From positions 4,154,001-4,218,000 of the forward strand of contig CM097888.1 of NCBI GenBank assembly GCA_044892525.1: a stretch of 64,000 nt of DNA, given 5' to 3'. Positions 29,850 to 62,595 of this stretch are shown here, piece after piece. Made by a program: the position numbers and the translations under genes. How positions within the stretch are numbered: position 1 is the stretch's first letter; every line of letters begins with the position of its first letter. The notes below the pieces were generated by a model. That model was given only the letters and a program-made list of their open reading frames with translations. It ran no database searches and was not told the DNA's origin. This stretch comes from Schmidtea polychroa. Lineage: Eukaryota.

Positions 29850-29850
29850 T

Positions 29851-30114
29851 ATAATGGTAAAGGTCAACTTGGAATGACCACGTTATTATCAATCATAATG
29901 ATAAAGGTCAACATGGTATTACCCTGCAATCATCAATCATAATGATAAAGGTCAACATGGTATTATCCTGCAATCATCAATCATAATGATAAAGGTCAGC
30001 ATAGGATTACCCTGCAATCATCAATCATAATGGTAAAGGTCAACATAGAATTACCCTGCCATCATCAATCATAATGATAAAGGTCAACATGGTATTACCC
30101 TGCGATCATCAATC
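29851..30114. repeat. 44-bp minisatellite, 6 copies (same family as 18638-19209)
   Basis: 6 x 44 bp, starting 1 nt after the hAT TIR. Confidence 0.95.
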
Positions 30115-30617
30115 ATAATGGTAAAGAATCATTACCTTATTAACCTTCAGGACCAACTAGGAAATAGTTCAAACATTAACAATCACTCAATTAATTAATT
30201 TATTGATATTGTCAATGCATTGATTAAATACTATTTACAAAATTTTTAATTAATTAATTAATTTTATTTGTTTAATTCTTGACACACACACACACACTTT
30301 GCTTAATCTTTGGTACCTTTCTCTCATTCAAACTCGCCATATTTTGTTTGTTTTAACTAATGTTTATTTGATAATTAATTAATAAATTAATAAATTAATG
30401 ATTAATAAGAAGAACCTAAATTAATCATTTTGATAAATAATCTACTTTATTTGAAATATATAAACAAGTTTCATAATATAAAAATAATAATTGTCACCTA
30501 CACGTGGTTGACTGATTGTAAGTATACTAATGAGATCACCAATGATTATATATAATCTAGTATATAAATTACTTATAAATATTATTATCTATTTCACGTA
30601 GAATATTTATCAAAATT

Positions 30618-30998
30618 ATGAANNNNNNNNNNNNNNNNNNNNNNNNNNNNNNNNNNNNNNNNNNNNNNNNNNNNNNNNNNNNNNNNNNNNNNNNNNNNNN
30701 NNNNNNNNNNNNNNNNNNNNNNNNNNNNNNNNNNNNNNNNNNNNNNNNNNNNNNNNNNNNNNNNNNNNNNNNNNNNNNNNNNNNNNNNNNNATTTTCTTG
30801 ATATTTTTTGTCGCAAGTTTCGAGCTGTTTCCCAAATCAGATGCCATGATTCTATCTGACGGAAAGTCGAACTGCGAATACGAGTGCAACCGGACGAAAG
30901 CAAATTGTCGACGAGATTGTTCGCTTTATGGTCCATGCAGTTATTGTTTTAATAGTTGTTCAAGCGCATTTCTCGAATGTGTAAGGAAATGTCAATGA
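30618..30998 (+). CDS. Small secreted Cys-rich peptide, copy 2 (N-terminus interrupted by an assembly gap)
   Basis: ATG AA[gap]IFLIFFVASFELFPKSDA followed by MILSDGKSNCEYECNRTKANCRRDCSLYGPCSYCFNSCSSAFLECVRKCQ*. Confidence 0.75.
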   Translation: MXXXXXXXXXXXXXXXXXXXXXXXXXXXXXXXXXXXXXXXXXXXXXXXXXXXXXXXXXIFLIFFVASFELFPKSDAMILSDGKSNCEYECNRTKANCRRDCSLYGPCSYCFNSCSSAFLECVRKCQ

Positions 30999-31443
30999 TA
31001 GAATGAAAATAAAAGTTTATATTTAATTCGTGTTTCCTCAGTTATTCTAGGAAGTGTCAATTTCATTTTGTGAAATAGCGGCAAAACTCATGATCGAAAC
31101 CCTCTATTTGACCACCAGTCACACCTTCTGTGTTTTCGCTAATTAGATTCGAGAAAACATGACATCGGGCAAACCAATGAAATTTGAGAGAGGAGGGGGG
31201 GTCAATTGGCTGAGGGCCAATACACACTGAAAATGTAATCTAGCAATATCATTAATAAACGCAAAATATAAAATAGATTCCTGAGGAACTCATAAATCCA
31301 TTTTCACTATTTTGTTCCTTGCAATAGTTATGTTCGTACGTGGGATATACGGATAACACACTCACTCGATGTGACTCCAAGGATATATGTTCAATAAAAC
31401 AAAATCACAACACGACTTATATAAAACTATTTATTTATATGTA

Positions 31444-32467
31444 CAGTAAACCCTCCAACTGCGCGGTTTTTCACTGCGCGGTTTCGCAATTGCGCGACCA
31501 AACCTTTAATACCAAAATTTCGATCTGCGCGCTAAAAATTTCGTAGCTGTGCGGTTTTTTTTGTTTTTGTCTATTTTAACAAGAAAAATCATGTCAATTT
31601 AATTTTTTATGGTGAATCCCGTAAAACTACGAATACATATGGTAGTGAAAATAGTGATTCATCGTATTTCGATGCACTGTATTTTTTATATAAAAATAAT
31701 AAAGGCAGTTTCATTTTTCTAGTGATGTGGTTAGGATTAGGATGTAAAATTACATAGTTTTAATTAATAGATATTTATACAAGTGTTTATTTAATTAAAA
31801 ATATATTAGTATTAAATTCAAAAAAATCTTATTCGTGTGCATTAGATATAACCGTTTACTACCGAAAAAATATCAAGTTTTTTAAAACTTGGTAGTCAAC
31901 TTGAACAGCAAGCTCTTAATATAGACCCTGATATGGAGCGTGCCTTAAAATTTCGGAGAAATCTGACAGCAGCTTTAGCACCATATGCTGAAATTTATAA
32001 AGAAAAACAAAAAGCTGGTAAGCAATCAGTGTTAACAAGCTTTTTTCAAAAAATTATACAATCACAGCCAATAGAATCAAGCTCATCAGCATGTAGCAGT
32101 GATTAATATAACGTTACTTATGTTAATTTTTATTTATGTTTAGTCGTTGAATTGAGACTGTTTTTTAGTTCTTGTATTGTTTTTTATAATTTTTATTTAT
32201 GTTAAATTTTTATTAATTTTTATAATAGTAATATTAATTATGTAAAAGCAATGAATTGAGACTGTTTTTATTAGTTTTTATGTTTATATAAATGTAAATA
32301 TGTATATTAGTCGTTGAATAAAGACTTTTTATTATATTTTTTAATATTTTTGTAATATCTGGAACCTAACCCCATAATTACATATATAATCGGGTTCACA
32401 GTGCGCGGTTTCGGTTTGCGCGTTGTTTTTGTGGAACGTATCTACCGCGCAGTTGGAGGGTTTACTG
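31444..32467 (+). mobile_element. Non-autonomous pogo/Tigger element, 1024 bp
   Basis: 24-bp perfect TIR CAGTAAACCCTCCAACTGCGCGGT and TA TSD. Residual transposase C-terminus DPDMERALKFRRNL..ALAPYAEIYKEKQKAGKQ..LTSFF. The empty site is present in copy 1 at ~20471. Confidence 0.96.
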
Positions 32468-33479
32468 TATAATATATATATATATACAAAATGTGGATTT
32501 AATTACAAAGTTTAAAATAACAATAAACGCGTTGCCCCAAAAAGTTGTTTCAAATAGGCAGCTGATAGATATCGGCTATACAAACTGTCCTAAGATATTT
32601 GCTGAGATATTTCTAAGACAGTGAATGCAGTATCCTAATTGGTCAACAGCACAATTCAACAAAGCCAGGAAATAGACGAGGGTTACCCGAAATTTACCGC
32701 GATCGATTACTACCCAGAAATTGGTACTAACGTTATCCTAAATTGCCTACCATCTGTTATTTTACCAAAAACAACCAAACCATCTTCTCTAGAAACCCGA
32801 TGATGTTTCCAAAGTAATATAAGCCTTGCTAGAACTGTTACAGCTGATCTATCAAATTATATAATGACCAATTTCTGTTTTTCGCAAATGGCTGTCATAA
32901 GGTACTTTAATTTGATCTTCCTTCTCTGTACTGATAAACTGTGCCATTTCATATCAAAATTTATAAATTAAAATAAATCAAAAATTATTATTTTTTAAAT
33001 AATTTCTTTTATTAATTACTAATTATATTATTAATTTTATTAATTACTAATTAGTTTTACCTTATCAAGCTTGTTCCTTACAAATCAGTCAAAATCTCAA
33101 AAATAGGAAAAAACCTTTTTATCATATATGTTAACATGTCAAGGACAGGTAAAAATTACTAGAAACTGTTCAAAATATAGAAGAGTAACAAAATGGATGT
33201 GATTAATATGCAAACCTAGGCTAAGCGAGGGGGGGGGCATAATCTGTGATTCTATGTAATAATTAAAAAAAAATTTGCACTGATAAATGGAATGACTAGT
33301 GAAAATTCCATAAGCAATATTGGCATTATATAAATTATTATTTATTAGTTTGTTTAAATAGTTGACATTTCATTTTAAAAAAATAATGATTAAAATAATA
33401 TTTTTAAAGAATTTTAAAAATATAAAATAATTATTTGTTGAAAATTATTTTTGAAAATACTTATTTAAAATTGTTATTT

Positions 33480-35550: not shown

Positions 35551-36012
35551 AGAGATTTGATAGGACGTTTTGACTGAATTTTTCTGTTGGAATTTTCTGA
35601 TTGCCCGGAAGGGACAGATTAGGATGTAATGAAACGCATTAAAAGGTAAAATGTATCCTAATATTATATAAATAAACACAATATTTCCCATTTTCCCAGT
35701 GAAATCAGACTCACTAGACGAGAGATGGGAAATGTTTATCCTAAATTCGAGTTTTAGGTCTCAAATTTTATCAGTTGTTTAGACAATATTTTGCCTTGAT
35801 AATTTCTTCAACATTTCCTTCTTAATGGAAAGCTCTGAAAACAATCTGGGAATTATCTGATAATAAAAAATGACAAATAGATTTGTTTGGCTGTTGACTG
35901 GGCAAACATTCACAAATAAATACAAATATTTCATTTCAATTTGGACATCCAATTAAATTGTTTTTGTAAACAACATAAATAATTCGTTTCAGCAAATGCT
36001 AATCCAGTTCCC

Positions 36013-39000
36013 ATGAAGTTCATCAATCGTTATTCAACTTTGAAACCTTACCAAAGGACCTTTGAAAATGAAGAATCTTTGGTGGTCAAGATCAATGTCC
36101 GAGGAATAAAGTTTAAGGTGTTTTGGAATACGATAAAGAAGATGCCCGGGTTGAGTAAAACGATACTTGAAAAAGGTTTGTATAACAAAACGAAAAACGA
36201 ATATTTTTTTGATCGAGATCCTGAGGTCTTCAAATGTCTTTTGAATCTTTGTCGGTTGGGAGAGATGCACATTCCGAGTACTATTTGTGGGCCGCTGTTT
36301 AATAGGGAAATTAAAGAATGGGGAATTCGGATTGAAAACAAGGTCGAGTTCTGTTGTTTGATGAATTTGACCAATTCTATGATGAGAATAAAAAATCTGA
36401 GAAATTTTGAGAAATTCTTTTATAAAAAATCCGATAAGGCAACAAATTCGATAAAATGCGTTTCTCATTTCCGGCAAATGATTTGGAAGGTACTCGAACA
36501 TCCTACCTCAAGCGCACTTGCTCTGGTAAGCTATGACCATTTCTTGTATTATTTATAAGAGGATGATAATATTTGGTACCGTTCTTTTTTTATTCAAAGG
36601 GAGATTTAGCACTTTGTGATTATTCTTCTCCATCCTTGGACAAAGGATTTCAACTGAAAGACTCTTCTATCAAAATTATCTTCTGAAACTGACTTTACAG
36701 TAAAACTTTATTTACATTGGTATTGCCAGTTGTAACTGATAAAAATATAATAACATTTCCAGGGGAAGCCGTGGACTCTTATCTATCCTGATCTGAAAGG
36801 TTTATGGTTCAGAATAATTTGAGTAACCATTCCATAAAATAAACGACAATATTAAAAAATAATAATATATAAATAGCATGTGGTGAGCTTCAGAAAACTT
36901 CATGAAGGGTGTTTATAAATACATCTTGCCCTATTTATAAATAATAAGTATATTGATATAAAAAGTTCTTATAAAAAATTAAAAATTATGACGTAACCAT
37001 TGGTTAAAACGTAATCACCGAGTAAAACAAAATTCAGAATATTATACAATCATTGATTAAAACAAAATATTATGTAATCAACGACAAAAACATTTTTTGG
37101 GAGAGTTGAGAATTCCTATCGGATCTCGATATATCCATAGGACCTATCTACTCCAGAAGGGGTCGCAAAAATTTGGTTTTATCATTTTGAAAAAAAAACT
37201 TTTACTTTTTTGATTTTTTCAATAAATTTTTCTAGGTGAGGCCCAATTATTTTTTTTGAAAGAAGCACTGAAGGATTAACTACAACACTTTAACCAGATC
37301 TCTTTATCAAATCCAGTAAAAATCCCATAACACACTTACTAGATATAAATGTCCAATAAGGACCTAAGGAAAACTTCAGCACCTGCCATTCAGAGCAACT
37401 ACCATATATACCGCGAGCATGCATATAAAAGGCATATGAAGGGTATGTGCCTCTGATGGATATTTGACGGGATGCTGGGCTACGCTGTGTTAATTGTGCT
37501 GTCGTCCTTTGGTCCGATTTTGCTATTATTTATTGTTAGGAATTTAGAAGTATAAAGCCAGTAGTATAGAATTATGTATTTAGATAATCATAATTAAAAT
37601 ACAATTTCTAACTAGTATAATCCCCGTCAAGCATGACGGCAAAAGTTGAAATGATAATAAAGTTAATTTTTCGTACATTTTATTTTTAAAATTTTTCAAG
37701 TAACTTAAAGTTAAATTTTAATCTGTGGGACGAATAGACAAACACAGAAAATATTTTACTGGCAAATTATAAGTAGATAATCGGTGAAACTGACACACAT
37801 AAAAGCAAACAAAGAAATTAATGACGGTTATTATATTATTAATAGATATTCAATGATGTTTCTAGTGGTAAATGTTTCAAGCTTATTTGGCTCTCACTGG
37901 TGCATTGTAAGAAACCCGATTTTACCCGGAATCTATTACATAACTTTATTATGTGCCCTTAGAATGTGATTACTAATCTGTCGGGTAAATAAACTTTATT
38001 TGTCACCAAATTAGCGTAAAAACAACCAGTTTGTAATGAAATCAGATGGCGGTAAGTTGTATCAAATATTTGGATATTTCTCAATATTTTTAAAATGCGA
38101 TTGCTACCTTAATTGCGCTTAGTTAGTCATCCGAAAGCCAAAACACTTCTATAATTTCAAATAAGCTACGAACACAATTTAGGACCAGAAAGGCTATCTA
38201 TTGTGCCATTTGTAGAATTGTTTACTAGTCGTCAATATTATTTATAGCTAATTATTAAAACAAATTTTCAAAATAAAAATACTTATTTAGATATATTCGG
38301 CAATTCTCTATTTGGCGGTGATGGGATTCCTATTCGTATTCGTAGTGTCCACGGTCAATTCAGACTCATTTGTACTTCAAAAGCTGGAAATTAAACAAAA
38401 CGTAACGATTCAAACTCCCGAGAAGGCGTATTACCTCAAAATTCTTAATTACATAACCGTGTTAATTCTCACATTCGATTTGATTACTCGCACAATTTTC
38501 TGTGACAATTTACGATCCCACGTATGCAGCTGTTATACGATAATTGACGTACTTTCCTTGATACCGGTTTATTACAACAATATCTACCTTCTATTTTGGA
38601 AACCAGATTTGCCTGATACCACAACCACAGAAGCAGGTCGTGTAATCCGAGTGTTGGGAATCACCAGTGTTTTGAGGTTTTTCAGAATCCTAAGGCAATA
38701 TCGAGGGTTTCAAGTTCTCCTTTACACTATGAAAGTTAGTGCTTATGACTTGATATTAATGATGGTCTTTGTGATGGTTGCAATCTTGGTTTTCTCTTCA
38801 GTAATATTCTACGTAGAAGAAAACGCACAAGAGACTCACTTCACAAACATTCCAAAATCGTTCTGGTGGTGTATCGTGACGATAACGACAACAGGATACG
38901 GAGATATGGTTCCAAAAACACCGTTAGGATTTTTAGTAGCTGGAATTTGTTCTTTATGCGGCGTACTTTTAATAGCGTTTACAGTTCCTATTTTGGTAAA

Positions 39001-39289
39001 CAACTTTGTTCTCTTTTATACACATACAGCTATGAGTAGCGAGCAGAGGATAACCAATTATGCATATAACCAGTTGGAAAGCCACATTAAAAAAGCTCTT
39101 GGTAAAGTTAAACATATCAGAAAAAAATCTAAAAAGTCAAAATGTTCTAACCACAAACACTGCATATCAAGTTCGGAGAACGTTACAGTCTTTACAATCA
39201 TGGAAGAAAATGATGCTGTTAAAGAAAACCAAAACTACGGAACGAATGGGCAGGATTGTACACTGATTGATAGCTTAAAGTATTTTTAA
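36013..39289 (+). CDS. Voltage-gated K+ channel, Kv3/Shaw-like, 2 coding exons, ~503 aa
   Basis: Exons 36013-36525 and 38291-39289, GTAAG..TTTAG intron, phase 0. T1 domain (EYFFDRDPEVF, CGPLFNREIKEWG, EFCC), S4, pore FWWCIVTITTTGYGDMVP and S6. An upstream exon cannot be excluded. Confidence 0.92.
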
Positions 39290-40910: not shown

Positions 40911-42697
40911 TTATAAGTTTCCGTTTAGCAAAATACCAGTAAACAGCATAATACCGAAAGTTATCAGGAACAAAAAGTGTTCCTCGAGGTGGGTTTGAAT
41001 AACAAAATGTTCATGATTTTTTGACAGCCCTTTACCCGAACCAATTAGGTTAAGGGTCAAGATAGAGCACAGAGTTTAAAGCAAAAGCTGTTTATCGGGG
41101 TTAGAGGTCTTCATAACAAAATTTTAATTTCAGGGAGGTAGGATTGGTCCATGAATTACTCCAGATGTGGTTCAGCCAAAAACATAGCCGTTCTTTCTAA
41201 ATTGAAATCTAACTAATAATAATAATAATAATAATTGTTCGAATTTATTATTTTTTAACAAGAATTCTTACTATTTTGATTGGTTGATTATTTTTTAAAA
41301 TATCAAAATTTAAAATAATTATACCAAATATTTAGAAAATTCTTTTAAACTATAAAATATAATTTTTCATAATTTTTCCTTTAAAATTTTTTATTTTATT
41401 CAAACATTTTTGTCAATTTGTCAAATTGAAACTTGTAAATCTTTTGTATTGTTTTTATTATTATTAAATGTCTCTTGTTACTATTTGCTGTCATCTCGCA
41501 GCGGAGTGTGAACGGAAATTTTCTTATCAATTCAAACAAAAAGTATGGAAGAAATTTAATTGAAAAAGAAATTAAAATAAATTCGACTGTCGAGAATAAA
41601 CAAAAGTGTTTTGATGATTCTCGATGGATGCATTTCAGAATTGTCTCGGGTTGAAATGTGTGAGGAAAAGGCAACATTTCAACTCCTTTTGTTTACGTAT
41701 GACAATGAGGTGCAGCCCAATAAATTGAGTTGAATTATATATTTTAAATATATTATTTCTTATTGGTGACAAACAATTCTAAACCTTATAAAGGATTCTG
41801 TGGGACTTTGATTATTTCCATGTGAATGAGCTCACAAATTGTTGGGGTTTACAGTTACATCAGCTTCGTACTACATATGAGCGCTTTGATCTCCATTAAA
41901 ATAATCATGATTCTATGATACTTACTCATATAAATGTAGAAGGGTAACGATTATGAGGATATATATAATTATGGGCATGAAAGGAAATGGGATATCACAG
42001 GAATTGGTTCATTGATAAGGTTTTCTGATAATGAGGTTTGAATTATCACAAGATATGCAAACTTTCAATATTTTACTCGTCTACATATTTTCTAGAATTT
42101 AATTTATTTTATGCTCCTGATAACTCAATATATATATTGTCAACTAACTATTACAAACAAAATCTTTATTAACACTGATGCAGTTACACATTTACACTTT
42201 TTATTAGTTTACTCACACTTGATACAATCAGGTTTTGTCTGCACTTTTCAATTTGCCAACAAATCTCACGCAGGGGTAGATCTTCAAACGGGAGATGTCC
42301 CTTTCTGGTACGTTCGATTTTTAAATTGTTTATTTTCTACTAACTTTAATGTTTCCTTTTTCGCTCTCGTCAAACTTCTATTTTCTTTTCTTCGACCAAC
42401 TGTCAATTTTGATTTCTTGCCAGTTGCTTTTATATTCACTTGGTAATTAACTTTATTTTGGTAAATTAGTTTGGGTCTAACTTCCCCCGGGCTTCCTCTT
42501 GTAGGTCTAATTCAATTTAAGGAATTGCCCCTTCTTCTTTGACGCTCGCGTCACTTTTATTTTATTCGGCTAATTTTATTGCCTTACCAAAATTGGATTG
42601 CTAATTCAGGTTTTCTCAAATCACTCGGGTTTTCTATTGTCTCGGGTTCTCCATTAGTCAATTAATTTTTGTTTTTTGTATTTCATTCCTTTTTGGG

Positions 42698-44288
42698 GGT
42701 TACATGACAAAATTACACAAGACGAAATTACACAAGACGAAATTACACAAGACGAAATTACACGGGATGAAATTACACTGAGACGAAATTACACAGGATG
42801 AAATTACACTGAGACGAAATTACACGGGATGAAATTACACAAGACGAAATTACACTAAAAAATAGTAAGAAACAAAATTAAAAAAAATAGTTTAAATTTT
42901 AATAAAAAGTTTTAATATAAAAATTAGTAAAAAGTTTTAAAAAATTAGTAAAAGTTAAGTATTAAATTTAGCAATGAATATATTAACAATTTTAAATAAT
43001 AAAATAATAAAAATTTAAGTAAAAAAATAATTATAATATTTAATAATTAATAAATATATATATTCAAATTACTAGTTTTTCTCTTTAATAATAACATAAT
43101 TTTTTATTTTATGAATAGTGAGAGATAAAGTAAAAAAATAAAATCAAACATTTAATGTTAAGTAAAAAAATAAAATCAAACATTTAATGTTAAGTAATAT
43201 GAGCTATTCACCACAAAAACTCTAATCGTCTATTAGGGTTATAATTAAGTACGATTCTCGAAATTCGTTGTTTAAAATTAGTGTAACGAATACGTCCTGG
43301 ATTTATTTGACCAGTTAAATGCTGTAAATAATTTGTATGCTGCAATGATAACTCTTTGATCATATTATTAAGAAATTTCCAAATTGTTGGATGGGAACAT
43401 TGGAAAAGAGATTGTATCCCATAATGCCATCCTTCTATACAATTTGTAGTTCTTGCTACGCAGTTTGCTGCTGATTCCCTATGGTTCCAAGATACTATAG
43501 TAAATAATGGATACTATAGTAAATAGCCTTGTCAATGAGCTTTTCTTTGGTAGTCCAATTTTTAATCCATCCGCTGCAGTCATTATATTGTCTGCTATGA
43601 CTGATCGAGCAGTTGCACCTGGGTGAGACATTTTATCTTTCATCGCATTAGTCAGTTTGTGTGATTTTGCTTCAAACACTTTATTTTCATGAGAATGCTC
43701 CGAGGGCTCACGAATAATCTTGTCGTCTTTAGTGTGGAGCAAAGATCGACATTTTAAAGTTCTAAATTTTGAACATCGCCAGTGTCTAGTCCCTTTTATA
43801 GTTTGACGATGTTGAATAAACTCAAATCCTTTATAAATAATGATTTTTCCACCTTTGTTGCTGATACTATACTCAAAGTTATCCATGGTGCGCAATGAAG
43901 AAAATTTGATGAATAAAATATCAATATAAGCAATAGACTAATAGAATTTAGTTTTATAGATTTTGTATATATAATTGTAAAAATAATATTAAAAGAGAGA
44001 AATAAGCTTTTATAATGATATTAATTTATTTAATAAGTTTCTAAAAATTTAATACTTAACTTTTACTAATTTTTTTAAAACTTTTTATAAAAAATTTTCT
44101 ACTAATTTTTTTTCTACTTTTTTCGTCTTGTGTAATTTCGTCTTGTGTAATTTCATCCCGTGTCATTTCGTCTCAGTGTAATTTCATCCTGTGTAATTTC
44201 GTCTCAGTGTAATTTCATCCCGTGTAATTTCGTCTCAGTGTAATTTCATCCCGTGTAATTTCGTCTTGTGTAATTTCGTCCTGACACC
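42698..44288 (-). mobile_element. Mutator-like element (MULE), deletion derivative, 1591 bp
   Basis: 9-bp TSD CTTTTTGGG (42689-42697, 44289-44297). Long TIRs built of 15/16-bp tandem units (GACGAAATTACACAA). Contains an FLYWCH ORF and the MULE C-terminus RTTNCIEGWHYGIQSLFQCSHPTIWKFL (~43330-43460). Confidence 0.92.
43479..43895 (-). pseudogene. FLYWCH zinc-finger N-terminus of a MULE transposase (DDE core deleted)
   Basis: SNKGGKIIIYKGFEF..RHWRCSKFRTLKCRSLLHT..EHSH, then LPKKSSLTR. The catalytic domain is absent. Confidence 0.85.
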
Positions 44289-45811
44289 CTTTTTGGGACC
44301 CCCCCCGCCCCCATTGATTTTATTTTATTATAGTTGAACTCGTCTCATTATTCAGCATCCGCTCATACCAGTTTCTCACGGAAATTATTCACTTTCAAAT
44401 TTATTTTTGCTTTTTAATTAAAATTTTATACTTTAAATTTTATTTTGAATTTGGTGTTTTAATCGATTTTCACCTCATTTTTGTGCCTCTCCTGTTGAAT
44501 CCCAACAATTATCAAATTGCTGTGTAACCAGTAGAAACAGTAGAATATTTGTGGTTATATCCAGTCATTCTGGAGGTGAATAAACCTATTATGTCAACAC
44601 TCCAATTCATAATTTAGGAGGAGAAGTTTGGATTGGTATTTGTGTTTCCCTCTTAAACATGCTTTTGATGTTTTCCTAGAAGGGATTTATATTTCAGAAA
44701 ATTCGATGTTTTTAGACCAGCCCTCAAAGATCCAGTGAAAAGGCAGTTGGTCTGTTTGTCTGAAGAATAAAAGGTTGCGTAGCAGCGTAACCAGTAATCC
44801 TTGCCAAAATATTTATATAAATAAATAAATAAATAAATAAATATATATATATATATAATTTGAAGTTTGGATTTCTATTTTTTTATTTTTTGTTTGTAAT
44901 GTGCAATTGTTACCTTTCTCATCCTTACAGACGATGAAGTTATAAAAATTGACACAAAATGCATAAACTATGTAAAATCAATTTTCTCGGAAGTAAAAAG
45001 TTTGTGCAAATGTCAAATGAAAAGTTTCATCAACAAATCCAATTCTAATAAAGCATCACTTTTCGAAATTCTTTTGGGGTAATCAAAATATTTAATTTTA
45101 TTTCTTTACCAAAGACTTCAATTATTACAAATTGTTCTCGACTTACTGTTTCAAACTAAAGGCACTTCTCACTGGACAGGGTAACATGTGAATGGATGAT
45201 TGATTATAAAATAAATGATCTCGAAGTTAAACACAAAATGCTTAGACCAATGGAACAAAATTATCAGAGGATCCAATCAAATGTCTGTTATTAAATAATT
45301 AAATAGAGAAACTGCTATAAATCCTAGTGTAAATAATCAGATATTAAAATAAAAAACTCTGAAATTGTAAGAAATTATAAAGAGCGAAACGAAAGTAAAA
45401 ACTGAAGACTCACTCACCAGAATGCGTGGGAAACACNNNNNNNNNNNNNNNNNNNNNNNNNNNNNNNNNNNNNNNNNNNNNNNNNNNNNNNNNNNNNNNN
45501 NNNNNNNNNNNNNNNNNNNNNNNNNNNNNNNNNNNNNNNNNNNNNNNNNNNNNNNNNNNNNNNNNTGAACCGGGAGAACAATGATAATATATGAATAAAT
45601 AAACAAATTGATATAGCAAATCATCACATACAACAACAACAGCAACAAACGAGCCCATCATTCATATTTATTCAAATACATAAGCAATGAAATTGATCAC
45701 GCCCCTCCAATGGGAGAATTGATGCGATATACAATTACAATCAAGGAATTTACCACCACACATCAAATGTAAGGCGGAAACCGGCAAAAGAAAACAAGAG
45801 ATAAATTGCAA

Positions 45812-52759: not shown

Positions 52760-53100
52760 GGCTGTGATGATAAGAGAAATATTAAATCGAATCTTTGTTT
52801 ATCCATCTGGGTTCGCTTACCCCAGGACGTTTAAACGCACAGTTACATTTTAAATTCAAGCATGATACGCATTCATCCAACATGCAATGATTTTTTGTAT
52901 TTAAGGTGGATTTAAATTACTAATTAATTTCCGTATTTGATTTTTCGATTTAACTTAAGAGATTAGTTTGGGGATTACTAAATTAAGGATTAATAAATTT
53001 AGGTTTAACGAATTAAGAATGGAAAAATTAAAATTTCGTAAATTGAATTTGAGATCGCATATTCAAATGACTCTTGTTTAACTAATTCAAAAGTTTAACT

Positions 53101-53417
53101 TGTTACTTTAAAGTATAAACATTATGTTGAGGATACCTAAATAAAATTACCTGGGGGAAGATCGCAGTTTAGAAACCAATCAGTGATTGTGATCTTTTAA
53201 TCCGGTGTTATACACAAGTGCTATTCCTCACCGAGTGTTGTAATAAGCATTGTATAGTCACCAAGTAGAGTGTTGAATTTATCGTCCGTGTCAAGTGAAA
53301 GTTTGTTTGTGATTATCAATAAAGATTTCTGTTGTCAAGTGTTATTTGTGAATTATATAAAGACACACTTGGAGTCAGAGTAACATTAAATTTTATCACC
53401 AACTCAATAACACAACA
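53101..53417 (+). repeat. Candidate 5' LTR (left boundary uncertain)
   Basis: Ends ..CACAACA five nt before the PBS. AATAAA at ~53318. The TG start at 53101 is a guess because the 3' LTR is not in the window. Confidence 0.45.
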
Positions 53418-53422
53418 TATTT

Positions 53423-53440
53423 TGGTGAGCCCAGCGTGAT
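53423..53440 (+). promoter_or_regulatory. Primer binding site, tRNA-Trp type
   Basis: TGGTGAGCCCAGCGTGAT. Its reverse complement ATCACGCTGGGCTCACCA fits the tRNA-Trp 3' end pattern (ATCACGTCGGGGTCACCA) with 3 differences. Confidence 0.7.
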
Positions 53441-53625
53441 CAAAAGTTGGTGAAGAGATTGTGAAAATAAAGTGTGGTAAATTGAAATTATTAAAGTGAT
53501 TTTGGAAAGGTAAATTGTTTATTGTAATAATAATTTGAGATTTAGATTTTGTGTAATTTGAAAAGAAATAATTTATTAAAGTGAAACGATATTATTTACG
53601 AAGCCAGAGTAAAAAGGAAGCCATA

Positions 53626-55574
53626 ATGAGCAGTGAAGATTTACCAGTTTCAGTTATTAAAGAAAATAATGATTTTGCCAGTTGTCAAAGATTGCCACTA
53701 GAGCAATATGGAGGAGATCCAATTATATTTGTTGATTTTATGAGCGATTACTATATGTATGCAACGGCTTATGGATGGTCTCACGCAATCATGAGGTTTG
53801 GCAACAAATCGACAGGAAAACAATCGGCAATGATTGGGCCAAATTAAAAGATGCATTGGCTGCTAAACTTATTGGAGGAGATATAAAGAGATTAATGCGT
53901 CAGAAATTTTATAATAGAGTTCAAAATCCAAATGAAACAGTGAGCGAATTTGCTTATCATTTATCGACTCTTGTCAGCAAATTCTTTGAAGAAGATTCGA
54001 AACAACCAGGATTAGCCCAACAGATGCAGGAACTGATTCAAGATCAATTTTTGTCCGGAGTAAATAAAGAAATAAAAACGGCATTATGTTTTGTAGAGTA
54101 TGACAATTTCGATGAACTAGTTAAAAAAGCAATGAAAATCGAATTGAACCTAAAGAGCTCTAAAAATAAATCTGAGGTATTTGCAATAATTCCAGTACAA
54201 AGAGAGAGATCAGTAACCCCAACCCAAGGCAATTTGGAATCAGGAAATAGATTTCAACGATCAAAGAGTCCATCACCTAAATGGAGAAACGATAATAATA
54301 TGAACAGAGCAAGCCAAAATTCACCCGGCACTGAGAGAGCTAAAGTTATTCCACTTGATATTTGTAAGAAAATTAGCCATTATACAAATCAGTGTTGGTT
54401 TAAAAATAATTCTGAAAGAGTACCCAGGAGATTGAGTCCAGATTGGCAAAGAGATAATAGAGGAACGAATTTTCGGAGAGCAATTCCTAATGTGAAGTCA
54501 AATTTTAATGAAGTACAATGTTATCGCTGTGGTGAAAAAGGACATGTTTCTAGAAATTGTTTTTCAAGATCAAGATCACCATCAATGTCACCATCACCAC
54601 AAAGAGATAATGTGAATTTAAATGGACAAATTCAATGTCATTTATGCAGAAATTATGGGCATATTGCAAGATCTTGTCCCAGGAATTCCGATAAATTTCA
54701 AAGACCAATTTTGAAACGAACGATTAGATTTCAGGAAGAAAGCCACTCAAAGAATAATGTTGCTTATGTTCAGAAAGATAAATTTAGAGAAAAAATTGAG
54801 AACGATGTCAAACAATTGAATCAAAAATTGAATAAATTGATGGCGAAATTTGAATCAGATGAAGAAACAGATTCTCATATGATGACAAGACGAAAATTGA
54901 AGACAGATGAATCCAAACTTGATGATGTTACAAGAAACCGAGTTAAAACGGATATGCAAAGTGAAAAGAGTACAATACTTATTGCTAAGGTCAGAAAATT
55001 AGTAACAGAACCTGATGCGAATTCTCAGAAATTGACGGAAGTATTGATGAAGCTAACGGAAATACCGTTGAGTTTAACCAAAATTAAAACTGTTATTAAA
55101 CTGTGTACCGAATGTTATGCAGCAAGTGTGGAAAAGCGAGATGTATTTGAAAAGTATATGAAAGAATTTGGCCAAACTCCACGAAAAATCAAATGGTTAG
55201 ACCCGATATTTATTAAAACAAATACATTAGATGACACCAAATCCGAGTATCAAGTTGAAGCATACGGAAAAATACGCGAGTTGAAAAGAGAAATAATGCA
55301 CAAATGTGAAGTTTGGGCAGTAGAACTTAGATTTATGAATCGAGTGTTGGAAGACGACGAATTTTTGATAGATTGTGGATTGATCTCCGGCGTTGAAAAT
55401 GAGATACAAATAGTGAGCATGATTGCCAATGTAAAACCAGTCAAATATGATGTCAATAAAATTAAATTTGAATTAAATGAAGCATTGATCAATGGAGATA
55501 CAGGTGATATTATTGATAAATTAAATAATATTTTGAATTTAGAATATGAAGTGCAAGATAAATTAAAAATTTAG
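53626..55574 (+). pseudogene. Gag (capsid-like, RS/SP-rich, CCHC knuckles) extended by a helical region and ubiquitin-like domain 1
   Basis: EQYGGDP..F..Y..YATAYGWS, frameshift ~53790, W..LKDAL..F..RVQNPNETVSEFA..L..DQFLSGV. Knuckles CYRCGEKGHVSRNC and CHLCRNYGHIARSC. C-terminal IFIKT..LRFMNRVLEDDEFLIDCG. Confidence 0.85.
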
Positions 55575-55618
55575 ATTGTGTCAGACCCTATGTAAATTAT
55601 GATAATAAATATAGTGAA

Positions 55619-55960
55619 ATGATAAAAAAGCTTATTCGTAAATTTGGACAAGAATTTAGAGAAAAAGGAGTTTATATTGAGCCATTCGTAATAATGTTAA
55701 AAATAAATGATCCAGAAGTGGAATGTACCAACGAGCATTGGTGTACGAAAGTGAGTAAAATACGACGGAGAGCAGCAGAAATTATGGGCAGTGATGGAAT
55801 AATTGTATTGACATACAAAGGTTTTGAGTTAGATGATGATGAGTACTTATTTGATTGTGGCTGTGTACCACGAAAATTTGATGAAAATGGATCTTTGGCG
55901 AATCAGGAAACGTTTATTAATGATTTATTAATGAAATTTAGTTGCGATGAAACAATTTGA
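55619..55960 (+). CDS. Ubiquitin-like domain 2 ORF of the retroelement
   Basis: KVSKIRRRAAEIMG..LTYKGFELDDDEYLFDCG resembles ubiquitin LIFAGKQLEDGRTLSDYN and UBL1. The frame is open back to 55562. Confidence 0.6.
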   Translation: MIKKLIRKFGQEFREKGVYIEPFVIMLKINDPEVECTNEHWCTKVSKIRRRAAEIMGSDGIIVLTYKGFELDDDEYLFDCGCVPRKFDENGSLANQETFINDLLMKFSCDETI

Positions 55961-56804
55961 ATCAAAGGAAGTAGAAAGCTTTAAAATGGAATTACCAAAC
56001 TGGGAAAATGAGATAATGAGTAATGATGATGAGATGCACGATGAACAAGAAATGAAAAGAGATGTAATATTAAATGAAACTGGAGAGATTATTGTTAAAA
56101 ATGAGATGAAGACTGAAGAAGATGAAATAGAAAATGAAGCGGAGCAGATTATTGTTGAGAATGAAATGAGAACTGAAGTTAAAAATGAGGCATATATGAC
56201 CAAGATGACGATTGATAATGATATTAAAGAAAAACAATGCAGAAATTTGTATGAAATAAGATGTCAAATAATACAGATATTTCAAGAGGAGAAAGATCAG
56301 AAAGACTCAAAGGAAACTGAGAAAATTGTACTTGCTCTAGTAAACGAATTATATGGTGAATCAACAGAGAGAATACAAGTTGAGAAATATGTGAGAAAAA
56401 TCGCAGAGAAAGTTAAAAAGAGATTTTGTGTAGTGTTAAAACAAGCAAAAGAAAGTATGGAATTTTGCGATGATAATGTGATAACTGAGATGATGACAAG
56501 GAAAATAGATAGAGATATGGTATTAACAATTATGAGTTATATTTTGTTAGAAATCGGAACCTATGATTGCTCAGATATGGAAAATCAAGAGGAAATAATT
56601 AAAACGGCGAGTAAAGTTTTACATAAACATGTTGGCGAATGGATAAAAGAGAATGGCGGTTGGGAAAAGCTGATTAAACAAAAAATAAAACCAGTTGTGG
56701 AATTGAGAGAAAATTATGAAGAGGTCTTGCAACGAAACACCATGAAATTTCCATTTTTAATGTTTATGATTATGATATTATTACAACTCAAACGACGTCT
56801 TTAA
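55947..56804 (+). CDS. Acidic N-terminus plus Bcl-2-like domain with C-terminal hydrophobic segment
   Basis: BH2 WIKENGGWEKL (56640-56672), BH3-like VRKIAEKVKKRF, divergent BH1 position EMMTRKIDRDMVLTIMSY, then FPFLMFMIMILL. Confidence 0.7.
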   Translation: MKQFESKEVESFKMELPNWENEIMSNDDEMHDEQEMKRDVILNETGEIIVKNEMKTEEDEIENEAEQIIVENEMRTEVKNEAYMTKMTIDNDIKEKQCRNLYEIRCQIIQIFQEEKDQKDSKETEKIVLALVNELYGESTERIQVEKYVRKIAEKVKKRFCVVLKQAKESMEFCDDNVITEMMTRKIDRDMVLTIMSYILLEIGTYDCSDMENQEEIIKTASKVLHKHVGEWIKENGGWEKLIKQKIKPVVELRENYEEVLQRNTMKFPFLMFMIMILLQLKRRL

Positions 56805-58839
56805 TCGCTTACGACTGTTCTCAAACAAAAATGGGAAAGGTATATTCGATGGTAGATATGACAGAATGTCCAGATGCACATCCACTGAGTTTAACAGTGG
56901 AAAAGGATGTAAAATATTATGTATATCAAGAGTCTGGATTTAGACATGCCACGGTGAGAGAGTGTATTGTGAAGAGAACAAGTTTTGTATTCTATTGTGG
57001 CAAATGGAGTCACACATCATTAATAAAAATGTATGCAATACCAAGGCCAGTTGATGTAAATCCAGAAAATTGCATGGCTGCATTCCAGAACGGAGAACTG
57101 AAAATAAGTCCCGAAATTAAATTGAAGGCGAATTGAATCATGCAATACGAGAAACGATTATTGAAAAAGTGGTGATAAAGGCCAATGGTGATTGTGAAGG
57201 CGAACCATACAAAATGAATGGGCAAATTATTGACAAAGTTGTTGTGATGGAGGAATATTTAACAGAATTGAGAGAATTTAAAGGAGCTTTTGACGATGAT
57301 ACAGGCAAATTACAAACTCATCCATTCTGTAATATGAAACAGACCAGTTGTCAAACAGGAAAATCGATTTTGGTATATGAAGTAAAGACAAATTTGTGTA
57401 ACTTGATACATTTGAAATCAATGAGTTTCAATGAAATGAGTGGCGAACAATTGAGAGATAGACCGGAAAGTTTGAATGTGGAAGCAAAGCCGGATATGAC
57501 AGTTAAAATTACGCGATTGAGAAAGAGAAAAACTCCAGTAGTTCTGATGTCAACTTTATTGGACGATGGGATGAGATTCATACGAAAACGAGTAGTGGAT
57601 AAGTGCGGCCAAACGGTGTATGAGACAAATTATAAAGGGATTTATGTGTCCAAGAAAAGAGTCGAGGAAGCTCAAATGAAAATACATAGTACAGATATTA
57701 AATTGACAAATTATTTCAATAACAAAATAGATTATCTATTCCATTACAGCCAAAGCATTGTGGAAAATATTTATCGAGAAATGATATTAAACGATTGTAA
57801 ATTAAACAAAGAAATATTACGAAATAGAATGGCGATGGCGGTCACAAATCCGAATTTAGTAGCACCTATGTTAATATCGGAAAACGGTGTATTTGCAAGG
57901 ATATTTGGTGAAGCGTTGTATAGCTATAAATGCAATAAGATTTCCGTACAAATTATAAAACACGAACAATGCACAAATGAATTACCAGTGAGTGTCAATG
58001 GTAAACTCAGATTTATGGAACCAATAACTCGGATATTGTTAGAGGAAGACGTAAAACCAAAGGTTTTAAAATGCAACAGATTACTCGCACCATTATATCG
58101 ATTAACACCAGATTCATGGATATCGTTACCAGATCACAAAGGAGTAAAAACTCCAGAAAAGCTCGAATTAACAAAGCTTGAGTATTTAATAAATTTCACA
58201 TCATTGGATAAATTAGCACAAACCGGATTGTATTCTCAAGAAGATGTTGAGGAAGCTAGAATGAATTTGTTATTTCCATCGAAAAAGGAACGAGTAATAA
58301 CTGAAATGATTGATACTATACTACCAGGAGGTGAAGGAAAAGTAAACTATGATTATCTATTAACACCAGATTATTATAAAAAGGCAACGTATAATACGAT
58401 GAAAAAGATATGGGGAAAATTTATGTTTTTAGGACAAGCGTGTGCGGGATTGATTGGAATTTATGTTATGATAGTGATGACAAAGGTAATAATATCTCAA
58501 ATATTAACTACACACCAATTATATGTTATATCTGGTTGGTCATGGAAATTGATTATTGGATGCATACCGTTCTTGGCCAGATTTCTGATTACCAAGCATC
58601 AATACAAAGAAATGGGGAAAGTAAAATCACGATTAACTAACAATAAAAGAAATATTGATTCAAGTTCGAGTAATGAAAGTGGAGATGGGGATAATGATAA
58701 TGATAAACCAAGAGTACCCCCTATGTATTATTATAAAAATAATAAAACAAAAATAAATGATATAAAGGAAAAATCTAAATCTATGAGTTTATTACATACA
58801 GTACCACAGGCAAGTGGAACAGACACTTTCAGTCGATAA
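56742..58839 (+). pseudogene. Chuvirus-like / herpes gB-like (class III) envelope glycoprotein with two 1-nt frameshifts
   Basis: Signal MKFPFLMFMIMIL, then (frameshift) TSLIAYDC, CGKWSH, GDCEG, YFNNKIDY, DCKLNKEIL, GEALYSYKC, CTNELPV, FMEPITRIL, GLYS.EDVE, C-terminal TM and GWS. Frameshifts at ~56782 and ~57132. Confidence 0.8.
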
Positions 58840-58881
58840 TGTATTCCAAAAACTTTTATTCCAACAGCAGCAATATATCCA

Positions 58882-59901
58882 ATGGAAAAACTAAAGGAAA
58901 TGAGGCCAATTGAGAATATTGAATTAACAAATGAGCAAATTATACCGACAAGTGCAGAAATTGAAAGGAGAAATATGCTGGGATTACCAGGAAATTATGC
59001 GCTAATGACAGTCGGAAACAGAGGCAGACAACCAAGAATATGGGTACAAGTAAATAAACATAGAGTTGAAGCATTTTTAGATTCAGGTTCGAGTAATACG
59101 ATATTATCAGACGAAGTGTTGAATTCAGCTGAGAAAGCACAAATGAAAAGTACAGAAGAAGTGGTACGATCAATGACGAAAAACAAACTAAATATTATTG
59201 GGCAGATTAGAGTCAAGTTCAATATTGGAAATCAGGAAATTGCTCATGATATTCTAATAATGCAAAATTGTCCAGTGGAATGCTTAGTGGGTATGGATGT
59301 TTTAGCACAGCTAGAAGGAGTTTGTCTTGATTTGAAAACGGGAAATTTGATTATGGGAGAAACGGGGAAAGCCATTCATGAAACAGGAGACGTGTTTCTA
59401 AACCAAACATTAAGAGTTCCACCTCAAAGTAAAGTTATTTGTTATGTGAATACAATGGGAGTTCCAGATGATGAATTTATATTTCAACCAAGTGAAACAT
59501 TAATCGAAAAGTATGATATCCCCATGTGCGACGAACTAGTAAAAGTCCAAGAGCAATTAATTCCCGTTTATATTACCAACAATAATGATAAAGAAATAGC
59601 ATTAGGACCAAAAACGAAATTGGGAAAGTTGACAAAAATCTTAAAAATGGACAATAAAAGATTACCGAAAAATATAAAAATATACAAAGAACCTCAAGTA
59701 AACAGTAAAGATTTGACCCAAGAACAAATACAAACATTTATGAAATTATTGAGAAAATATCAAGACGTCTTTGCAAATCATGAATATGATCTAGGAGTTA
59801 CTCATGTAATTGAGCACGAAATTCCATTAATGGATGAAACTCCAATTAAACTACGACCATACAGAATTCCTTATGCACATCAAGAGGAAAGTGATAGATA
59901 A
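58882..59901 (+). CDS. Retropepsin protease, linker and RT N-terminus (pol part 1)
   Basis: VEAFLDSGSSNTIL, CLVGMDVL, LLRKYQDVF..DLG..IEHEI..PIKLRPYRIP. Same frame as the G ORF and as 59911. Confidence 0.92.
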   Translation: MEKLKEMRPIENIELTNEQIIPTSAEIERRNMLGLPGNYALMTVGNRGRQPRIWVQVNKHRVEAFLDSGSSNTILSDEVLNSAEKAQMKSTEEVVRSMTKNKLNIIGQIRVKFNIGNQEIAHDILIMQNCPVECLVGMDVLAQLEGVCLDLKTGNLIMGETGKAIHETGDVFLNQTLRVPPQSKVICYVNTMGVPDDEFIFQPSETLIEKYDIPMCDELVKVQEQLIPVYITNNNDKEIALGPKTKLGKLTKILKMDNKRLPKNIKIYKEPQVNSKDLTQEQIQTFMKLLRKYQDVFANHEYDLGVTHVIEHEIPLMDETPIKLRPYRIPYAHQEESDR

Positions 59902-59910
59902 ATAAAGGAT

Positions 59911-61150
59911 ATGAAGGATTTCAATATCATCAGAGACAGTTTTTCACCATTTTCTTCATCCATTGTTGTTGTTAAGAAAAAAGACGGTGAAATAAGATTT
60001 TGTATCGATTATCGAAAACTGAACCAAGTTACAAGAAAGGATACATATCCAATCCCAGTTACTCAGGAAATGTTCGACAAAATGGGAGAAGCTCAATATT
60101 TTACTGTTATTGATTTAAATAAAGGGTATAATCAATTCAAATATCATGATGGAGCATTGGGTGGACATTTATCAGCAAGAAAAACAATGTCACGATTAAA
60201 ACTAAAGTATTTTTGGAATACAATGGACCAAGATGTAAAGCATTGGTGTAATACGTGCAAAATTTGTCTAACTCGAAAGAATACAGGAAAGAAAATAAAA
60301 GTCCCACTAAAACCAATGCCAATACCAGCAGCGCCAATGGAATTTTCAGCAATGGATATTATCGGGCCCTTACCCGAAACTACAAATGGAAATAAATATA
60401 TTATTGTATTTTGTGATTATTTAACAAAATGGCCAGAGGCGTACGCAATACCAAATCAAAAAGCGGAAACAGTTGCTCAAATATTTGTCGAAAAGATTAT
60501 ATTCAGATATGGTGCTCCAAAGAAATTGTTAACAGATCAAGGAACAAATTTTGAAAGTGATTTATTTAAATCTATTACCGAATTATTTGGTATTTATAAA
60601 TTAAATACATCACCATATCACCCGCAAACTGACGGGCTAGTAGAAAGATTTAATGGTACTTTAATCAATATGATTGGGACTTATTTATCAAACCATGTCT
60701 GTTTGCCTATCGAAATGCAGTTAACGAGAGTACGGGTGAAACACCTTTTTATTTAATGTATTTGAGACGAAACAATATGCCAATTGACCTGAAATTTCAA
60801 CCCCCAACGTCTCAATATATGGACGTTCCAAATTATAAAGTAATAATGCAAGAACGATTACAATCTGCATGGACTCGTGCGGGGTTAAAAATTAAGTATC
60901 GTCAGGAACAATATAAAGAAAACTATGACAAAAAGGCGCATGAGCACGGAATAAAAGTCGGAGATTCAGTATATTTAAATAGGCCAGAGCCAGTAAAGGG
61001 CCTATCAACAAAATTACAAAGACCATTCAAGGGTCCATACACAGTGTGTGATGTTACAGCAACTAATTTGAAGTTACGTCCAATGAATAACAAAAGAGCA
61101 GAAACAATTATAGTTCATGCCAATCGATGTAAGAAAGTATCCGAAATAGA
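59911..61150 (+). pseudogene. Truncated RT fused in-frame to integrase (most of RT and all of RNase H deleted)
   Basis: SPFSSSIVVVKKKDGEIRFCIDYRKLN..IDLNKGYNQ joined directly to HDGALGGH..C..C (HHCC). Core MDIIGPL / TDQGTNF / GLVERFNGTL. Frameshift ~60700, then GPY/F motif RPFKGPY. Confidence 0.93.
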
Positions 61151-61238
61151 GTATCAATTACGATCAAAACAAAAGAAACTTAATGATGAAAAAATTATTC
61201 AACAAAAATTTCATAAAAACCCTACGCCATTGGGATAT

Positions 61239-62408
61239 ATGAACAGAGTTTTATTTATAACTACAGTCTTAATAAATATCATAGCAAATGCAAGTGGAAT
61301 AACAATGAATCTACCATATGCAGTAGAAAGAGTACCCTTATTGGATAAAATTTATATATATTCAACATTTACTAGTATTGAGTGTGAAATATCAGAACAA
61401 ATAGAAGTTAGTAATTTATTGAACCCTTTCGAACCATCTGTTACGTTGAATTATGAGAAAAGCATATATGTAGCTCGTCGATTGACAGCAAATTACAAAT
61501 ATCCTTGGACCATTAAACGATATACGCATTAAACAAATACTACTCAAAATATTTATAACCTTATACAAATTAACATTTGGACAAATGAATGGAGAAATTT
61601 AGTTGAAATTGAACCAATGATAAATGAAATTCACGTATATTGGAAAGCGGAAGAGCAACAGAAACTCAGAATTGTTTTTCAAAACATTACGATTGAAACA
61701 TTAAATAAAAGAAAATCTTTTGTTAAATACAAAAATTTACAAGAAAATCTCACTTACAGTCTTTCAATACATTATTACGAGAAACTCATTCATGACAATG
61801 GGACGTATATGAATAATCAATGGATAGAAGTGCAGAGTCAATATGAAGCAGTACACTTGGTTAACGAAACTAATCGAGTTCAAATAAAAATTGAGAACAA
61901 TGAAATAATTGTGTTACCCCAACCAGGCCTCAGACAAAGGGTAAATATTTTTGTAAATAATAAAATTCAGGTGGTGTTAGACGAATACCAACAAAGAGCA
62001 AAGTTGAGTACCTTGAACTCAGTATCTAATCCGAAACCAAGAAATTTCATGATCAAAATTCAATATTGCAAGCGAAAAGCGAACTCAGATCAATGGCAAG
62101 TCACTTTCATTGAAAATAGACATATTCATCTTCCTCATACTCAAACCATTGGAGAAATAATAAGTGATCATAATCTAACATTAACCGTAAAACCCTCATG
62201 GTCAAAAAACGAAAGCTTTTCACTAAACTGTAAAGAAAAATCATCTCATAACAATTGTGTCGAATTGCTATTCATATGTATCATTGTGGCAATACCAAGC
62301 GGTATCTTACTCATCTACATTGTTCTAATCTTGAGAAGTAATGACAATGACAATTCTATCTGCGACTATCAATATTCTGAGCCGCAGCAGTTAGAGACAT
62401 GGGTGTAG
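61239..62408 (+). pseudogene. Type I membrane glycoprotein with FN3-like segment (one in-frame stop at 61530-61532)
   Basis: Signal-like MNRVLFITTVLINIIANASG, multiple N-x-S/T sites, HVYW..KNLQENLTYSLSIH (FN3-like), TM LLFICIIVAIPSGILLIYIVLIL, and tail ending ETWV*. Confidence 0.6.
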
Positions 62409-62595
62409 TAAGATATGATTTCATTGCATGCTATTGATATCGTAGAGTATTTCTTTCTTTCATACCTTTTATAATTACATAAAAATGACTAATAGTGATC
62501 TTGTATTGTGATTATTCGTGATCTAAAATTAAATTAACCAAGGAATTAACCAATCAAATTACTGTAATTTGATTGGTTAAACGATTGCACTACTG

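Follow-up and report, generated by a model that had tools for sequence, protein, structure and literature searches.

The closest described relatives of the element analysed here are Burro and GYPSM1, giant Gypsy-like elements of planarians in which a single polyprotein holds Gag, CCHC zinc knuckles, ubiquitin/SUMO-like and BCL2-like domains, and an envelope that precedes the protease (PMC6431247; Grohme et al. 2018 as cited there). According to section 7 of that work, Burro-2, -3 and -4 carry a BCL2-like motif with a ubiquitin/SUMO-like domain before it, and the Burro envelope, which matches mononegaviral fusion proteins, lies in frame between BCL2 and the protease (Arkhipova and Yushenova, 2019, PMC6431247). 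Thus, the combination of a Bcl-2-like domain with an in-frame envelope is already published for planarian Burro elements, and the statement in a preliminary description of our locus that no such domain was known from LTR retroelements has to be withdrawn. Section 7 of the same paper contains nothing on the fold of the domain, the loss of its NWGR motif or a signal segment.

A second set of relatives consists of six Schmidtea GAG-ENV-POL elements with a gB-type envelope (PMC13524379), which share with ours this gene order, a class III envelope and a size of 14.5-18 kb. The printed envelope of one of them, Smed_errantivirus_1, equals that of our element at 61 of 77 positions, as counted by eye, and neither the main text nor the seven supplements searched, figures excluded, contain the string 'Bcl'. 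In addition, B-IAP of Burro1 (Dev Cell 2026, as cited in PMC13465017) is an anti-death cargo of a planarian LTR element, with reported protection of stem cells and support of regeneration; unlike the domain studied here, it is a RING/BIR IAP that acts on caspases and has no Bcl-2 fold, and no BIR was found in our element. The passages covered of PMC8532177 and PMC12440569 contain nothing on Bcl-2. Outside the texts of Grohme et al. 2018 and Dev Cell 2026, the literature covered contains no test of the present domain and no proposal that links its anchor to an envelope signal.

To this background we add a model-based confirmation of the Bcl-2 fold, the loss of the BH3-binding motif in every element-borne copy, and a membrane segment that likely predates the capture of Bcl-2. 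Our overall reading, which we hold to be somewhat more probable than its negation, is that a Burro-like Gypsy element has a Bcl-2-fold domain built into its one Gag-Env-Pol polyprotein, that the segment after this domain is likely the envelope's own signal peptide and would tether the Gag-ubiquitin-Bcl-2 precursor to the endoplasmic reticulum (ER), and that the domain likely dampens cell death in a non-canonical way.

Organisation of the element and its sister families

The window, namely the whole stretch of 64,000 nucleotides of Schmidtea polychroa DNA that was analysed (contig CM097888.1, positions 4,154,001 to 4,218,000), holds from position 53125 onwards, and up to about 4.3 kb beyond its end, a Gypsy-type LTR element of 15.2 kb in total, whose features within the window all lie on the forward strand. 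The 5' LTR (TG...CA, 53125..53417) is internally deleted relative to the 3' LTR of about 950 bp, which lies outside the window (L021:5385-6334). Across their common 268 bp the two LTRs are 97.4% identical, and the target duplication of the element is 4 bp, ATTA. Judged by its sequence, a stretch that begins TGG directly after the LTR (53423..53438) resembles a primer-binding site.

The coding part opens with Gag, CCHC zinc knuckles and a first ubiquitin-like domain (53626..55574), a region that is broken in the window copy and matches PF03732 (E 4.9e-5), PF00098 (E 5.3e-9) and PF00240 (E 0.01) of Pfam. A second ubiquitin-like domain (55562..55960), which shares 31% identity with the first across 61 aa (pairwise E 1.7e-6), leads into a poorly conserved acidic linker (55961..56288), the Bcl-2-fold domain (56289..56693), a variable linker (56694..56741) and an internal segment that resembles a signal sequence, in which the frame of the window copy is broken near 56781 (56742..56800). 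This is followed by a Monjiviricetes-type (class III) fusion glycoprotein (56801..58590), whose mature part is predicted to start at LIAYDC, whose frames match PF24664 at E 2.4e-14 and 2.1e-70, and whose hydrophobic segments lie at 58447-58506 and 58537-58590; a second break of the envelope frame occurs near 57130. Downstream lie a retropepsin protease (59026..59319; PF00077, E 2.8e-7), a remnant of reverse transcriptase (RT) joined to integrase, recognised from Pfam matches and the complete Pol of other copies (59902..61200), and an accessory reading frame with a DEDD exonuclease match (62581..63690; PF00929, E 2.9e-6). The window copy is dead, with several stops and frameshifts and with RT and RNase H mostly gone.

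Between integrase and accessory frame, the window has a second internal signal-like segment, an ectodomain without a Pfam match and, last, a membrane helix (61248..62408, helix at 62265-62333), and the same arrangement, with an ectodomain of 200-330 aa, is seen in all four families described below (L135, L137, L139). A single-sequence fold model of this ectodomain has a pLDDT of 33.6, too low for use. At a place like that of the accessory frame, families B and C have frames of 496 aa and 722 aa, respectively (L135:2493-3980; L137:1677-3842).

The LTR pair, the target duplication, the order protease, RT, RNase H and integrase, and a class III envelope between Gag and Pol are those of Ty3/Gypsy GAG-ENV-POL elements. 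With Burro our element also shares the ubiquitin-like and BCL2-like domains and an envelope that lies in frame ahead of the protease. When compared with Burro, which exceeds 30 kb with its LTRs and encodes 4,873 aa (PMC6431247), our element is much shorter at 15.2 kb, and so are the longest open frames of its sister families. MATH, BIR, ankyrin and dUTPase domains gave no Pfam match at E 0.05 in the four families, whereas PMC6431247 used profile-profile search. The element is best called a smaller, Burro-like member of the Burro lineage, below the size of a Burro in the strict sense.

A search for the junction of Bcl-2 and envelope in the genome of origin (781 Mb) gave 40 scored matches among 775 candidates. 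Besides the family of the window (A), this genome has three sister families (B, C and D), whose open frames reach some 3,050-3,440 aa. Inspection of one copy per family showed Gag, zinc knuckles, a Bcl-2-like domain, the hydrophobic segment, envelope, protease, RT, RNase H and integrase, in this order, in each, and a ubiquitin match in families A and D. The preliminary description had read the envelope as following the hydrophobic run with a shift of 1 nt. The run quoted there starts at 56748, and the neighbouring frame encodes TTQTTS-LIAYDC at 56783-56818; the final letter of the quoted run, however, was read from beyond the frame break, and the shift itself is a lesion private to this copy. 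From BH2 to the start of the envelope, the frame is open in 17 of the 19 best-scoring other family-A copies, the exceptions being one in-frame stop and one shift at another site; one of the 17 has a stop immediately before GGW. Of four additional family-A loci, one is open, another has a stop, and the remaining two lack the motif pair. The frame is likewise open in 10 of 12 copies of family B, 16 of 20 of family C (leaving aside L096, which shows no motif pair) and 29 of 30 of family D, so that within this genome intact copies do not keep a stop between the two parts. A relative from a metagenome, L142, has a stop between Bcl-2 linker and signal segment, on a single contig, and this may be decay.

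Since sibling and sister-family copies mostly read through, we interpret the break near 56781 as private decay and reject a programmed 1-nt frameshift at this place. A separate envelope start at a Met ahead of the hydrophobic core was also considered, and is not general, as this Met is absent from family D and subfamily C2. Matches of many family-A copies end near query base 555-565, and a subgroup (L016, L018-L020) retains the stretch from Bcl-2 through the signal segment to the first residues of the envelope, beyond which it no longer follows the envelope sequence; this subgroup is likely a non-autonomous deletion derivative.

Elsewhere in the window, stretches that we take by eye to be host genes encode a Wee1-like kinase (16674-17957), a ferritin (25756-26169) and a voltage-gated potassium channel (35983-39289). 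A segment of several kb is duplicated some 11-12 kb apart (18550-21030 and 29763-33052), each duplicate having a 44-bp tandem array and a small cysteine-rich reading frame, and a DNA transposon-like unit with long inverted ends of 15-16-bp tandem repeats lies at 42690-44290. About 7-23 kb past the window end (L021-L023), just beyond the 3' LTR, a polymerase-sized frame, an ATPase-like frame and a long inverted repeat make up what is presumably a Polinton-like element.

The Bcl-2 fold, its BH motifs and selection

The assignment of the domain, residues 26-160 of our model, rests on Pfam, profile search, structural modelling and structure comparison. First, the window copy matches PF00452 at E 8.4e-5 to 2.5e-4, with 22-23.5 bits against a curated cut-off of 31.4; 17 of 19 element-borne rows match at E <=0.01, and the sister-family copy L045 reaches 33.3 bits. 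Second, a profile search of PDB sequences gave 93 matches at E <=0.01, and the 60 of them that were listed are all Bcl-xL or Bcl-2. Third, an AlphaFold2 model, built from an alignment of 19 element-only rows that are 22-94% identical to the window domain, is helical and of moderate confidence (pLDDT 64.8, pTM 0.57). Among 48,161 PDB representatives its best match is Bfl-1 (VIA Z 13.2, rmsd 2.9, 133 aligned), and ranks 1-35 are all Bcl-2-fold chains, with Z falling to 4.8 at rank 36. The Foldseek matches listed for the PDB are all Mcl-1, A1/Bfl-1, Bak or Bcl-xL, the best with E 1.3e-3 and none reaching 0.001, and in a library of viral structures ten of the first 11 rows are either named Bcl-2 homologues or unnamed. 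A word-based search with the single domain returned 0 of 287 candidates, and a search of viral contigs confirmed 0 of 224 stretches. As modelled, the element-borne domain has a Bcl-2 fold, in line with the suggestion of the preliminary description.

The BH2 motif proposed there is also borne out. WIKENGGW lies at 56640-56663 and conforms to the WIxxxGGW motif of multidomain pro-survival Bcl-2 proteins; the six frames of the window contain a motif of this type once, 200 codon shuffles of 53100-64000 never yielded one, and GGW is invariant in 19 of 19 element-borne rows. The BH1 region is degenerate, as had been noted, with DRDM at the place of NWGR (56508-56519), and the four families have DRDM, NKEV, NRDK and DRDV at this position. 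In a set of 14 element-borne rows, eight of which come from sources beyond the genome of origin, the Trp of NWGR is found in none and the Gly in one. The Arg position is basic in 10 of these rows, none of them from families A, B or D, and is Met or Val in the family of the window and in two sister families. The putative BH3, VRKIAE, is present at 56391-56408 within the helix at the BH3 position; as its acidic residue is mostly not kept (three of seven rows of the window's family, 0 of 12 sister-family rows), the sequence comparison indicates that it is not a conserved BH3 motif.

What do these changes imply for ligand binding? The Gly and Arg of NWGR matter for the binding of BH3 ligands (PMC9027176), and human Bfk, a protein without NWGR in which Arg takes the place of the Trp, did not bind a Bid BH3 peptide (PMC8814693). 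Ordinary BH3 capture by the element-borne domain appears doubtful, because the Trp is missing from 14 of 14 rows. ORFV125, which has SPGR, binds Puma about 250-fold more weakly (PMC9027176), so that the element-borne domain may still bind BH3 ligands weakly.

The same pattern bears on the idea that the domain is a non-apoptotic scaffold with a Bcl-2 fold, which would bind immune or autophagy signalling proteins or help to keep Gag at the budding membrane. Poxvirus A46, A52 and B14 are Bcl-2-fold binders of immune signalling proteins. A fold and BH2 that are retained while the BH3-binding motif is lost from all rows would be expected of such a scaffold, as would the neighbouring ubiquitin-like domains and a rapid divergence between families, which fits changing partners; the replacement of the Trp by R or K in 10 of 14 rows, a feature also described for Bfk and Bid (PMC8814693), points the same way. 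However, the nearest folds are cellular pro-survival proteins (Bfl-1) and not A52, B14 or A46 (Z 6-7.6), and the Arg position is still basic in most rows. Weighing both sides, we judge a scaffold to be a rather unlikely alternative to a role in cell death.

The origin of the domain was addressed with host and other mobile homologues. The 14 element-borne rows group together at 93/91, which is under starred support and concerns rows chosen by a profile built from themselves. Neither a sister relationship with host Bcl-xL-like genes (p-AU 0.16) nor one with Bcl-2 genes of Polinton-like elements (p-AU 0.30) is rejected. In the host, seven near-identical Bcl-xL-like gene copies with intact NWGR occupy one region (L024-L030, G000:C4:89.95-90.83 Mb), either through tandem expansion or as an assembly artefact, and a Bak-like BH3 segment lies at L148:9523-9699. 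The same genome has multi-copy elements with stand-alone Bcl-2 genes (L046-L051, L145:206-661; L039-L044, L052-L053, L146), which we take to be Polinton-like from their neighbour genes and general knowledge. One such Bcl-2 gene is intronless, with a hydrophobic tail and 32.5 bits to PF00452; another is apparently split by an intron and lies near an A32-type ATPase and a chromodomain. Bcl2 is mentioned for adintoviruses in PMC8502044.

Selection was measured as codon-pair dN/dS between natural copies, in pairs that are not independent of each other. The Bcl-2 domain gave 0.11-0.34 in all five within-family pairs, namely 0.11 and 0.11 in subfamilies C1 and C2 (intervals 0.05-0.21), 0.24 and 0.34 in family A, and 0.32 in family D, with an interval reaching 0.96. 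For the envelope, four pairs lie at 0.04-0.17 and the pair of family D at 0.33; the acidic linker, at 0.16-0.46, is also under purifying selection. Between families, identity is 26-35% for the domain, 21-29% for the linker and 39-82% for the start of the envelope, the domain thus diverging nearly as quickly as the linker. By these comparisons, the Bcl-2 domain is under purifying selection yet fast-evolving. It also appears to be dispensable, because it is absent from three relatives that nest among Bcl-2 bearers.

These values could be taken to mean that the domain is a near-inert passenger, folded and in frame merely because it sits inside an essential polyprotein. In the best-resolved pairs its dN/dS is not clearly below that of the acidic linker (0.11 vs 0.16-0.18), and Bcl-2 has been lost or swapped out at least two times. 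Against this, GGW is kept in every row although the families share 22-34% identity, and the domain persists across lineages that share about 40% identity in their envelopes. GGW would not survive for so long in a pure spacer, and we therefore consider the passenger reading very improbable.

Ownership and predicted cleavage of the hydrophobic segment

The preliminary description had proposed that the hydrophobic run is the tail anchor of the Bcl-2 protein, doubling as the envelope signal peptide. In its fullest form, this would mean that a host Bcl-2 was captured together with its tail anchor, that the anchor became the signal peptide of the envelope, and that cleavage gives rise to a viral Bcl-2 of the canonical kind, anchored in the membrane and able to sequester BH3 proteins. 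The position of the segment, C-terminal to BH2 and in the orientation of a tail anchor, agrees with such an origin, and family D has just 42 aa between BH2 and the mature envelope, a length close to that of the tails of three stand-alone homologues (32-36 aa). Hydropathy, tried as a means to tell tail anchor from signal peptide, gave no separation (19-residue maxima 1.0-2.05 vs 1.12-2.27), and so leaves room for a captured anchor. A tail anchor should also terminate its protein, whereas here an envelope of about 600 aa follows in frame.

The distribution of the segment speaks for another owner. A search of representative proteins gave 11 matches, of which five have GGW, linker, segment and envelope start, one is the product of L142 and one is a false match to a repeat protein. 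An envelope search among longer proteins gave five matches, including four polyproteins that contain the whole envelope region (P0012-P0015, 36-43% identical), and a metagenome scan added L143 (29% identical). In P0012-P0015 and L143 the segment is present and profile search found no Bcl-2; a Bcl-2 fold too diverged for the profile may hide in these five relatives. In a 13-row envelope tree rooted on L143, which is a long branch, P0015 falls outside a starred clade of all Bcl-2 bearers and three non-bearers. Monophyly of the Bcl-2-bearing envelopes is rejected (p-AU 0.0004), and three changes of Bcl-2 are required, for which one gain and two losses would be the simplest reading, and recombination between modules an alternative.

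Because five relatives without detectable Bcl-2 keep the segment, the two most distant included, we take the envelope to be its most likely owner, and the segment very probably is older than the capture of Bcl-2. Further, the PF24664 match starts at profile positions 4-7, inside the segment, so that the envelope family profile itself covers it, and the second signal-like segment, which follows integrase in the window and in the three sister families, has no Bcl-2 ahead of it. The spacer between the end of BH2 and the mature envelope varies from 42 to 70 aa across relatives, and NWGR is lost from every element-borne row, which likewise do not suit a canonical captured protein. The double role of a Bcl-2 tail anchor is thus not supported, and we regard the capture scenario as a whole as quite unlikely.

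Regardless of origin, the segment has the anatomy of a signal sequence, namely a basic n-region, a hydrophobic core and a polar c-region. Small residues at both -3 and -1 are found in 14 of 16 related rows, which are kin, against a background of 0.11, and by eye the junctions of L142 and L143 also fit this pattern. It is highly likely, from these features, that the segment inserts with its N-terminus in the cytosol and its C-terminus in the lumen, and that signal peptidase cuts before L/I-x-A-Y-D-C. The earlier reading of a signal-peptidase cut stands in so far as a likely site lies just before LIAYDC and the upstream product would be membrane-bound; it has to be amended in that the anchored product would be the whole Gag precursor.

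Possible roles and comparison with known systems

With the segment assigned to the envelope, our preferred reading of an ER-tethered Gag-ubiquitin-Bcl-2 precursor can be laid out as follows. During translation, the segment would direct the ribosome to the ER, where signal peptidase would release the envelope into the lumen. For Pol, the membrane helix of the envelope would bring the chain back to the cytosol, and after integrase the second signal segment would act as the first had done. The product from Gag through Bcl-2 would then stay on the ER via the cleaved signal. The tether may be regarded as a by-product of the layout of the envelope signal that acts on the whole Gag precursor, by analogy with hepatitis C virus (HCV) core and E1, and it may later be removed by signal peptide peptidase or by the element's protease. 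Release of the domain in the manner of ubiquitin was considered and set aside, as Gly-Gly is absent from both ubiquitin-like stretches of the window copy. Contigs from three runs presumed to be RNA contain no joint into the envelope, which is uninformative either way.

As to what the tethered domain does, its fold, the selection on it and the reported IAP function of Burro1 led us to propose a pro-survival role, and that it favours survival of the producing cell is in our view almost an even chance. Apoptosis suppression is unproven, because NWGR is lost and the domain is part of a Gag precursor and not a separate protein. Moreover, the ER, to which the precursor would be tethered, is not the site of action of mitochondrial Bak. 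It is tempting to speculate further that this NWGR-less retroelement Bcl-2 exploits a single signal-peptidase cut, which would free the fusion protein and fix Bcl-2 to the ER, such that each envelope made brings along an inhibitor of death or autophagy; we consider this specific coupling possible, though improbable. If it were true, then together with the IAP of Burro1 and the Bcl-2 genes of Polinton-like elements it would mean that several mobile anti-death genes, each captured independently, keep planarian stem cells alive. Should the domain prove active, a Bcl-2 protein would be at work within the polyprotein of a retroelement, and planarian RNAi makes this testable.

The proposed tether has a parallel in HCV core, which is held on the ER by the E1 signal until signal peptide peptidase removes it, and in pestivirus core (PMC7601889). 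In these systems, as would be the case here, the signal peptide of the glycoprotein that follows forms the end of a cytosolic protein, which is ER-bound after signal-peptidase cleavage. The differences are that HCV and pestiviruses are unrelated RNA viruses and that signal peptide peptidase then cuts their anchor (PMC7601889). With regard to the domain itself, human Bfk shares the fold (Z 7.8) and, like the element-borne domain, is missing NWGR (PMC8814693). The viral Bcl-2 homologues KsBcl-2, A179L and BHRF1 also have the same fold (Z 11.4-12.2). Of these, KsBcl-2 keeps NWGR (PMC9027176), in contrast to the element-borne domain, and whereas the viral homologues are stand-alone proteins, the element-borne domain sits inside a polyprotein.
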